Source: Escherichia coli
GTDB taxonomy: Bacteria; Pseudomonadota; Gammaproteobacteria; Enterobacterales; Enterobacteriaceae
NCBI RefSeq assembly: GCF_041248615.1
Contig: NZ_CP158426.1
Direction: 5' to 3' (one strand)
Length of the DNA stretch: 64,000 nucleotides
Of this stretch, positions 4,671-4,909 are shown piece by piece (the first letter of the stretch is position 1; each line of letters opens with the position of its first letter). Below the pieces are notes generated by a model. It saw only the letters and a program-made list of their open reading frames with translations. It searched no databases and had not been told where the DNA came from. The position numbers and the translations under genes are program-made.

Positions 4671-4868
4671 TGCAGGTCTCCTGGAGTCCACGCACATCGT
4701 GTAATGAGTCTGATGCTCATCTCCTTGTCACACGTTGTGTAAAAGTGGCACTGCCAATTGTGTTGTGTAGGGATAATGACAATGAATGGTTAACTAAATG
4801 TTATGCATTGGCAACATTGATGTGAGTTTTAATTGGGGAATTGTGAACCAGAGGTCAGATAAGCGAAG

Positions 4869-4885
4869 AATTGGTAGGGCCAATT
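4869..4885. promoter_or_regulatory. candidate LldR/PdhR-type (FadR-subfamily GntR) operator palindrome in the lldP upstream region
   Basis: AATTGGTAGGGCCAATT read in sequence; 6-bp perfect inverted arms (extendable to 9/10 bp) about 200 bp upstream of the lldP ATG; assignment to LldR is from memory of the box consensus. Confidence 0.4.
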
Positions 4886-4909
4886 CTTGGTGGAGGGAGA
4901 TGTCTGGTA

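Follow-up and report, generated by a model that had tools for sequence, protein, structure and literature searches.

A palindrome between an adhesin gene and lldP of Escherichia coli as the predicted LldR operator O1 of the lldPRD promoter

Gene content of the lld locus

The window analysed here is the whole stretch of 64,000 nucleotides of Escherichia coli DNA, in which a palindrome lies in the 297-bp intergenic region between lldP and an adhesin gene. Every gene around this region is encoded on the minus strand. The genes and the terminator adjoining the palindrome are as follows.

531-1004, minus strand: trmL
1052-2242, minus strand: lldD, FMN-dependent L-lactate dehydrogenase (NF033901, 824 bits)
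2239-3015, minus strand: lldR, regulator of the GntR/FadR subfamily, 258 aa (NF007741 equivalog, 498 bits against a cutoff of 311)
3015-4670, minus strand: lldP, L-lactate permease, 551 aa (NF007740, 1199 bits against a cutoff of 918)
4906-4944, minus strand: intrinsic terminator of the adhesin gene, with a 13-bp stem and a 4-nt loop, then UUUUCUUU (terminator scan)
4968-9287, minus strand: trimeric autotransporter adhesin of the EhaG/UpaG/SadA positional group, 1439 aa (position, annotation and profiles)
9331-10014, minus strand: gene for a DUF3251 protein, 227 aa, 43 bp upstream of the adhesin gene (RefSeq annotation)

The lldR gene was intact. Its product showed 99% identity to LldR of K-12, and the substitutions (D124E, I142L and E248D) were conservative and all located outside the N-terminal DNA-binding domain (wHTH). 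The next-best family match of the LldR protein in the profile search was PdhR. LldR is the predicted cognate binder of the two operators described below, O1 and O2. The permease LldP had two substitutions relative to K-12. We also observed lldP-like copies on some E. coli plasmids (35 places, e.g. NZ_OZ546942.1 78452-78590), with about 87% identity over the first 144 bp of the lldP part of the query; O1 and O2 were not covered by these matches. A search with Rfam models at gathering thresholds and a tRNA/tmRNA scan, both over the whole window (1-64000), found no such RNA genes.

The adhesin matched the profile models of Ata, EmaA and YadA, in each case below the cutoff of the model. RefSeq labels the adhesin at this position ehaG or YadA-like family protein, and EhaG, UpaG and SadA of Salmonella are described as positional orthologues in a review (PMC7247748). 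A search of the DUF3251 gene product (9331-10014) against NCBIfam profiles gave no matches. The hairpin of the adhesin terminator starts 23 nt past the stop codon of the adhesin gene and is followed by the U-run TTTTCTTT, which qualifies it as a Rho-independent terminator. Its stem was predicted at about -21 kcal/mol with a z-score of -4.0, and none of 200 shuffles was as stable. The hairpin is identical in K-12 and O157.

The palindrome and the lldPRD control region

Between the lldP start codon and the adhesin terminator, the following elements were recognised.

4743-4759: O2, the predicted second LldR operator, AAGTGGCACTGCCAATT (minus strand AATTGGCAGTGCCACTT; repeat match, K-12, literature and conservation)
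4780, minus strand: predicted lldPRD transcription start (placed by the reported distance of 110 nt to the ATG)
4789-4803, plus strand: ArcA-box-like direct repeat GTTAACTAAATGTTA, overlapping -9 to -23 (consensus scan)
4809-4814, minus strand: candidate -35 hexamer TTGCCA, at -34 to -29 (from the reported start and conservation)
4866-4888: extended perfect palindrome AAGAATTGG-N5-CCAATTCTT, 23 bp (repeat finder)
4869-4885: O1, the predicted LldR operator and also a PdhR box, 17-mer AATTGGTAGGGCCAATT (sequence, K-12 identity, literature and conservation)

Judged from its sequence, the palindrome is almost certainly the operator O1 of the lldPRD promoter and would be bound by a dimer of LldR. 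On the minus strand, i.e. the strand of lldP, the 17-mer reads AATTGGCCCTACCAATT. The repeat finder delimited perfect inverted arms of 9 bp that are 5 nt apart (AAGAATTGG at 4866-4874 and CCAATTCTT at 4880-4888). A preliminary description of this DNA had drawn the arms out to 10 bp (GAAGAATTGG / CCAATTCTTG), which fails at the outermost pair, a G against a G. Its distances were sound: the roughly 200 bp given to lldP is 207 bp from the centre of O1 (4877) to the ATG (4670, minus strand), and the roughly 25 bp given to the adhesin hairpin is 29 bp to the foot of the hairpin (4915-4944) or 26 bp to its extended arm. The three outer pairs of the 23-bp palindrome are found in Escherichia only, and the flanks of the 17-mer vary in other genera.

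A search for AATTGG-N5-CCAATT with at most one mismatch gave two matches in the 64-kb window, against 0.15 expected; one of 100 shuffles reached two. Both matches were located in the same intergenic region, 126 bp apart. The 23-bp extended palindrome had no occurrence in shuffled sequence. When two mismatches were allowed, the pattern was at chance level in the 64-kb window (4 observed, 4.0 expected). Therefore, the evidence for an operator is carried by the two strong paired sites and not by the loose motif.

The partner site, O2, was detected by the repeat finder as both a direct and an inverted match to O1, 126 bp away whether measured from centre to centre or from start to start. Aguilera et al. 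(2008, J Bacteriol 190:2997) reportedly mapped a single transcription start 110 nt before the lldP ATG, with O1 at -105 to -89 and O2 at +22 to +38. Applied to the window, these figures, which we take to be accurate, place the start at 4780, O1 at 4885-4869 and O2 at 4759-4743, so that the operators coincide to the base with the two 17-mers. This agreement of all three figures supports the assignment of O1 and O2.

Aligned to K-12 MG1655, O1 together with the extended arms was identical over AAGAATTGGCCCTACCAATTCTT, O2 was identical as well, and the interval between them was identical except for two substitutions. The 17-mer of O1 is the first LldR box listed for the yibL>lldP spacer of K-12 in Table 1 of Anzai et al. 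2023, and by the authors' count for this identical K-12 site it scores 12/14 against the LldR consensus AAnTGGTCnGACCAnTT (PMC10272880). The second box is printed there as AAgTGGcactgCCAaTT (PMC10272880), which is window 4743-4759. The authors find both boxes consistent with the pair of sites from Aguilera et al. 2008; in their genomic SELEX with LldR the peak at the yibL/lldP spacer was the strongest, and this spacer also showed the tightest gel shift (PMC10272880). The 17-mer is also cited, in a passage of PMC3582500, as needed for DNA binding by LldR, and it is the PdhR genomic-SELEX site of the same spacer, with 13/14 against the consensus AATTGGTnnnACCAATT (PMC7660256). The preliminary description had proposed a FadR-subfamily operator of the PdhR/LldR type upstream of lldP, to be checked against K-12 and the published LldR operators. 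The published operators do map at the palindrome and K-12 has it unchanged, so that the proposal stands as a match to a published LldR site; the partner O2 (4743-4759) had been missed. The identity of O1, its partner, its regulator and the regulatory logic are already known, and the finding itself is an ordinary one.

A scan of species-representative genomes with LldP gave 80 loci. These include Escherichia, Salmonella, Citrobacter, Klebsiella, Kluyvera, Enterobacter, Lelliottia, Raoultella, Kosakonia, Leclercia, Buttiauxella and Cedecea. O1 with at most two mismatches was present at -174 to -212 from the lldP ATG in 79 of the 80 loci, and O2 in most. The strict core TTGG-N5-CCA occurred twice in 73 of the 80 loci, and in 69 of these 73 the spacing between O1 and O2 was either 126 bp (52 loci) or 125 bp (17 loci). 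Even in Buttiauxella and Cedecea, in which both boxes are 30 bp nearer to the ATG, the spacing is still 125 bp. A distance of 126 bp from O1 to O2 corresponds to 12 helical turns. The conserved 12-turn spacing fits a phase-dependent interaction between O1 and O2, and its retention as 125/126 bp across about 70 enterobacterial species provides comparative support for such an interaction. When 81 distinct upstream regions were aligned, mean column conservation was 0.94 over 4871-4880 and fell to 0.40, 0.18 and 0.10 in the next upstream blocks of 10 nt. Within the lld control region no conserved element lies farther out than O1, and, as conservation collapses just upstream of it, O1 marks the outer edge of this region.

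The TTGC of the candidate -35 hexamer is invariant across genera. The candidate -10 element is weak (AACCAT or TAACCA, at about 4786-4792), and a sigma-70 promoter scan of 4600-5050 found no consensus promoter above threshold, a result that fits an activator-dependent lldPRD promoter. The best-conserved block between O1 and O2 is 4781-4815, which holds both TTGCCA and GTTAACTAAATGTTA. The latter is the single match in the window within one mismatch of GTTAATTAAATGTTA, which we take to be the ArcA-box consensus. An ArcA operator has been placed between O1 and O2 (PMC8689689), and lldPRD is among the operons repressed by ArcA (PMC3798270).

Two further islands were observed on the minus strand between O1 and the -35 element, TTCACA (4842-4847, about -62 to -67) and CTCACA (4821-4825, about -41 to -45). 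They are 80-100% conserved across genera, and LldR or ArcA boxes do not account for them. The lldPRD promoter is glucose-repressed, and a class-I CRP half-site at these islands is therefore conceivable. A CRP site at TTCACA (4842-4847) was considered and rejected, the left half-site TGACC being poor and not conserved.

The adhesin module and its junction with the control region

The region is present in 5420 of 5426 complete E. coli genomes and, in at least 4150 of the 5426, is joined to the 3′ end of the adhesin gene. K-12-type genomes match only up to window 4946, with O1 and the hairpin included. K-12 is without window 4947-10573 (5.6 kb comprising the DUF3251 gene, the adhesin gene and the upstream region) and carries 95 bp with a REP element instead (2906-3000 of the K-12 locus, L001). 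In O157:H7 (L083, 7084-7180) and E. albertii, the stop codon of ehaG and the terminator are separated by a REP-type insert of about 70 bp. In O157:H7 this insert is flanked by a duplicated CTAAGGGCAA, and its right-hand part is shared by K-12; the window strain (4945-4967) does not have the insert. Since the hairpin has been kept unchanged and the right part of the O157:H7-type insert is shared, K-12 looks like a deletion derivative of an adhesin-bearing and REP-bearing ancestor. The deletion possibly arose through REP elements.

The idea that the adhesin was acquired by this strain was rejected for E. coli as a species, given its presence in at least 4150 of 5426 E. coli genomes and the apparent origin of K-12 by deletion. 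The preliminary description had spoken of an acquired adhesin operon; within E. coli this wording does not hold, the adhesin being the majority state. At the level of the family it may still be apt. Only 6 of the 80 enterobacterial loci have the pair of DUF3251 and adhesin genes between yibL and lldP, namely three Escherichia-type loci, Citrobacter braakii, C. youngae ATCC 29220 and Enterobacter wuhouensis. The DUF3251 gene co-occurs with the adhesin in other genera. At most other loci, 256-290 bp lie between the end of yibL and the lldP ATG, and yibL comes with an unrelated hairpin of its own. The adhesin was absent from Salmonella arizonae and diarizonae, the two subspecies sampled. The module may thus have been acquired here long ago, or it may be an ancient resident that was lost many times.

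In every case, the junction of the module was upstream of O1. Since O1 is the outer limit of conservation, the adhesin module can come and go upstream of it without affecting lld regulation, which bears out the earlier remark that the module abuts the lld control region and leaves it undamaged. That O1 acts as a fixed boundary, with the 20-100 bp upstream of it forming a recurrent junction for gain and loss of DUF3251 and autotransporter genes (in Escherichia, some Citrobacter, one Enterobacter and Salmonella enterica subsp. enterica), seems to us a long shot. Should read-through of the terminator, or a protein bound at O1, couple the two units, expression of the adhesin could be linked to the sensing of lactate or pyruvate in adhesin-bearing strains.

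Several observations concern the module and its flanks in their own right. The adhesin is 1439 aa long here, 1751 aa in NZ_OW967178.1 and 1588 aa (ehaG) in O157:H7, and over the first 200 residues its identity to the adhesins of other Escherichia loci is no higher than 52-61%. Both the length and the sequence of the passenger domain appear to vary strongly. The junction of NZ_OW967178.1 is 100% identical to the window over 451 bp (window 4600-5050). On the other flank, yibL and its upstream DNA (10574-11079 compared with L001 2400-2905) are 93.7% identical to K-12, with an identical YibL protein, against 98.3% on the lld side. The yibL flank of the module thus seems to carry an allele that has diverged or recombined. 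An E. coli-type arrangement of yibL, DUF3251 gene, adhesin gene and lldP, with a 100% identical LldP, was also found in a metagenome-assembled genome labelled "uncultured Oscillospiraceae bacterium" (CALXDF010000207.1, locus L005). This locus is most likely a binning contaminant.

Regulation at O1 and comparison with known systems

The regulatory role of the two boxes has been described for K-12. According to a summary of earlier work in PMC3424551, the two LldR sites flank the transcription start, repression needs both of them and activation needs the upstream one. O1, O2 and looping are described in PMC8689689 and in the legend to Fig. 1 of PMC5412874, and repression is described as requiring both operators and depending on helical phase (PMC8689689). 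An lldR mutant loses lactate induction (PMC10272880). In vitro, lactate first strengthened and then weakened the complexes of LldR with DNA (PMC10272880), so that the effect of lactate on DNA binding in vitro is not a simple one. When pairs of LldR operators were placed on the lacUV5 promoter in a massively parallel reporter assay, synergy between distal and proximal sites was absent (PMC7804116).

From these studies, the following scheme may be proposed for the window. O1 would be the high-affinity upstream site for a dimer of LldR, which is encoded two genes downstream in the same operon, and O2 would be its weaker partner just past the transcription start. When lactate is absent, LldR would occupy both boxes, and the dimers are thought to interact so that the core promoter is looped out and repressed. 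L- or D-lactate would lift the repression mediated by O2, and LldR with lactate on O1 (centred at about -97) would serve as the activator needed for induction. Phosphorylated ArcA may repress the promoter anaerobically through a box overlapping the -10/-35 region, and PdhR may bind O1 as well. Repression probably involves DNA looping between O1 and O2, as in the published model. The binding of LldR, its dual role as repressor and activator, and looping are taken from the K-12 literature and are presumed to extend to the identical sequence here. Our own results are the identity with the published site, the geometry of O1 and O2, the intact lldR gene, and the deep conservation of the boxes and of their spacing.

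The palindrome may additionally, or even mainly, be an operator for PdhR, the pyruvate-sensing paralogue of LldR, which would repress lldPRD at low pyruvate. If this is true, lactate oxidation would be tied to the level of its product. We regard such a role as quite possible, while leaning slightly against it. O1 matches the PdhR box AATTGGTnnnACCAATT at 13/14 positions, slightly better than the 12/14 of the LldR consensus, and the DNA-binding domains of the two regulators are related, as indicated by PdhR being the second-best family match of LldR. This close likeness to the PdhR box is, however, seen in O1 only and not in O2. In O1, the plus-strand halves TTGGT / GCCAA yield GGTnnnGCC/GGCnnnACC, which is one mismatch from the PdhR-box core GGTnnnACC. 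Aguilera et al. are said to have found in 2008 that mutation of pdhR left an lldP-lacZ fusion unaffected, which counts against control by PdhR. In genomic SELEX, PdhR did give a peak at the yibL/lldP spacer, a pdhR mutant showed a 3.3-fold rise of lldPRD mRNA (PMC7660256), and PdhR is listed among the lldPRD regulators (PMC10272880). Against a main role for PdhR stands the loss of lactate induction in the lldR mutant (PMC10272880). A role for PdhR would add to that of LldR and not replace it, and the weight of PdhR at O1 in vivo is disputed.

It is hardly credible that the palindrome is a functionless inverted repeat that arose by chance in AT-rich intergenic DNA. The two-mismatch motif is indeed as common as in shuffles (4 versus 4.0), but the exact and one-mismatch sites are paired 126 bp apart at the promoter of an operon that encodes the matching regulator. 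The sequence is also identical to an experimentally characterised operator, and O1 is conserved across genera but its flanks are not. We give just as little credence to the palindrome being a part of the adhesin module, whether as its 3′ end, as a second terminator-like hairpin or as a recombination site. The adhesin terminator is 29 bp away and one half of O1 resembles an arm of its hairpin (22 nt, 73% complementary), yet O1 is present in K-12, which is without the adhesin, and in about 70 enterobacterial species with yibL directly upstream of lldP. Furthermore, O1 lies downstream of the terminator T-run and would therefore be transcribed only seldom, a 9-bp AT-rich stem without a T-run is not terminator-like, and the terminator scan found no terminator at O1. 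A role at the RNA level, as a part of the terminator or through alternative pairing with the hairpin arm, was likewise rejected, O1 being located after the T-run and conserved where there is no adhesin. The resemblance itself is between the terminator arm AAGGGCAATTCTC (4924-4945) and the O1 half-site with its flank TAGGGCCAATTCTT (4875-4896), which form an inverted pair of 22 nt with 73% complementarity; it is probably a coincidence.

The reading of the palindrome as the LldR operator O1 is mainly of value for annotation, as it fixes the architecture of the lldPRD promoter in the window. A description of O1, O2, their regulator and its logic in K-12 dates from 2008, and lactate biosensors have since made use of them. 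Two small additions, the conservation of both operators with their spacing and the position of O1 as the outermost element, may be useful for promoter engineering and comparison.

The closest known system is lldPRD of K-12, which has the same 17-mer, the same 23-bp palindrome at the same distance from the ATG, the same O2 at 126 bp and the same operon order lldP-lldR-lldD. The two loci differ only upstream of window 4946, where an adhesin gene is found here and 95 bp with a REP element in K-12. With the PdhR boxes of pdhR-aceEF-lpd, ndh and cyoA, O1 shares 13/14 positions of AATTGGTnnnACCAATT. It differs from them in having one half-site TGGC instead of TGGT and in its location at about -97, an activator-type position of LldR that does not overlap the core promoter. 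Two dyads that bracket a promoter at a spacing of integral turns are likewise known from AraC (araBAD I1/O2), GalR and the auxiliary operators of LacI. Unlike in those systems, the regulator here is a GntR protein of the FadR subfamily, and looping, which is deduced, was not reproduced on a heterologous promoter (PMC7804116). The LldR proteins of Corynebacterium glutamicum and Pseudomonas aeruginosa belong to the same subfamily, recognise a dyad with a TGGT/ACCA core and have a lactate-utilisation target. In these two species, one operator overlaps the promoter and lactate simply relieves repression. In contrast, the enterobacterial lld system has a distal activating site together with a downstream site.
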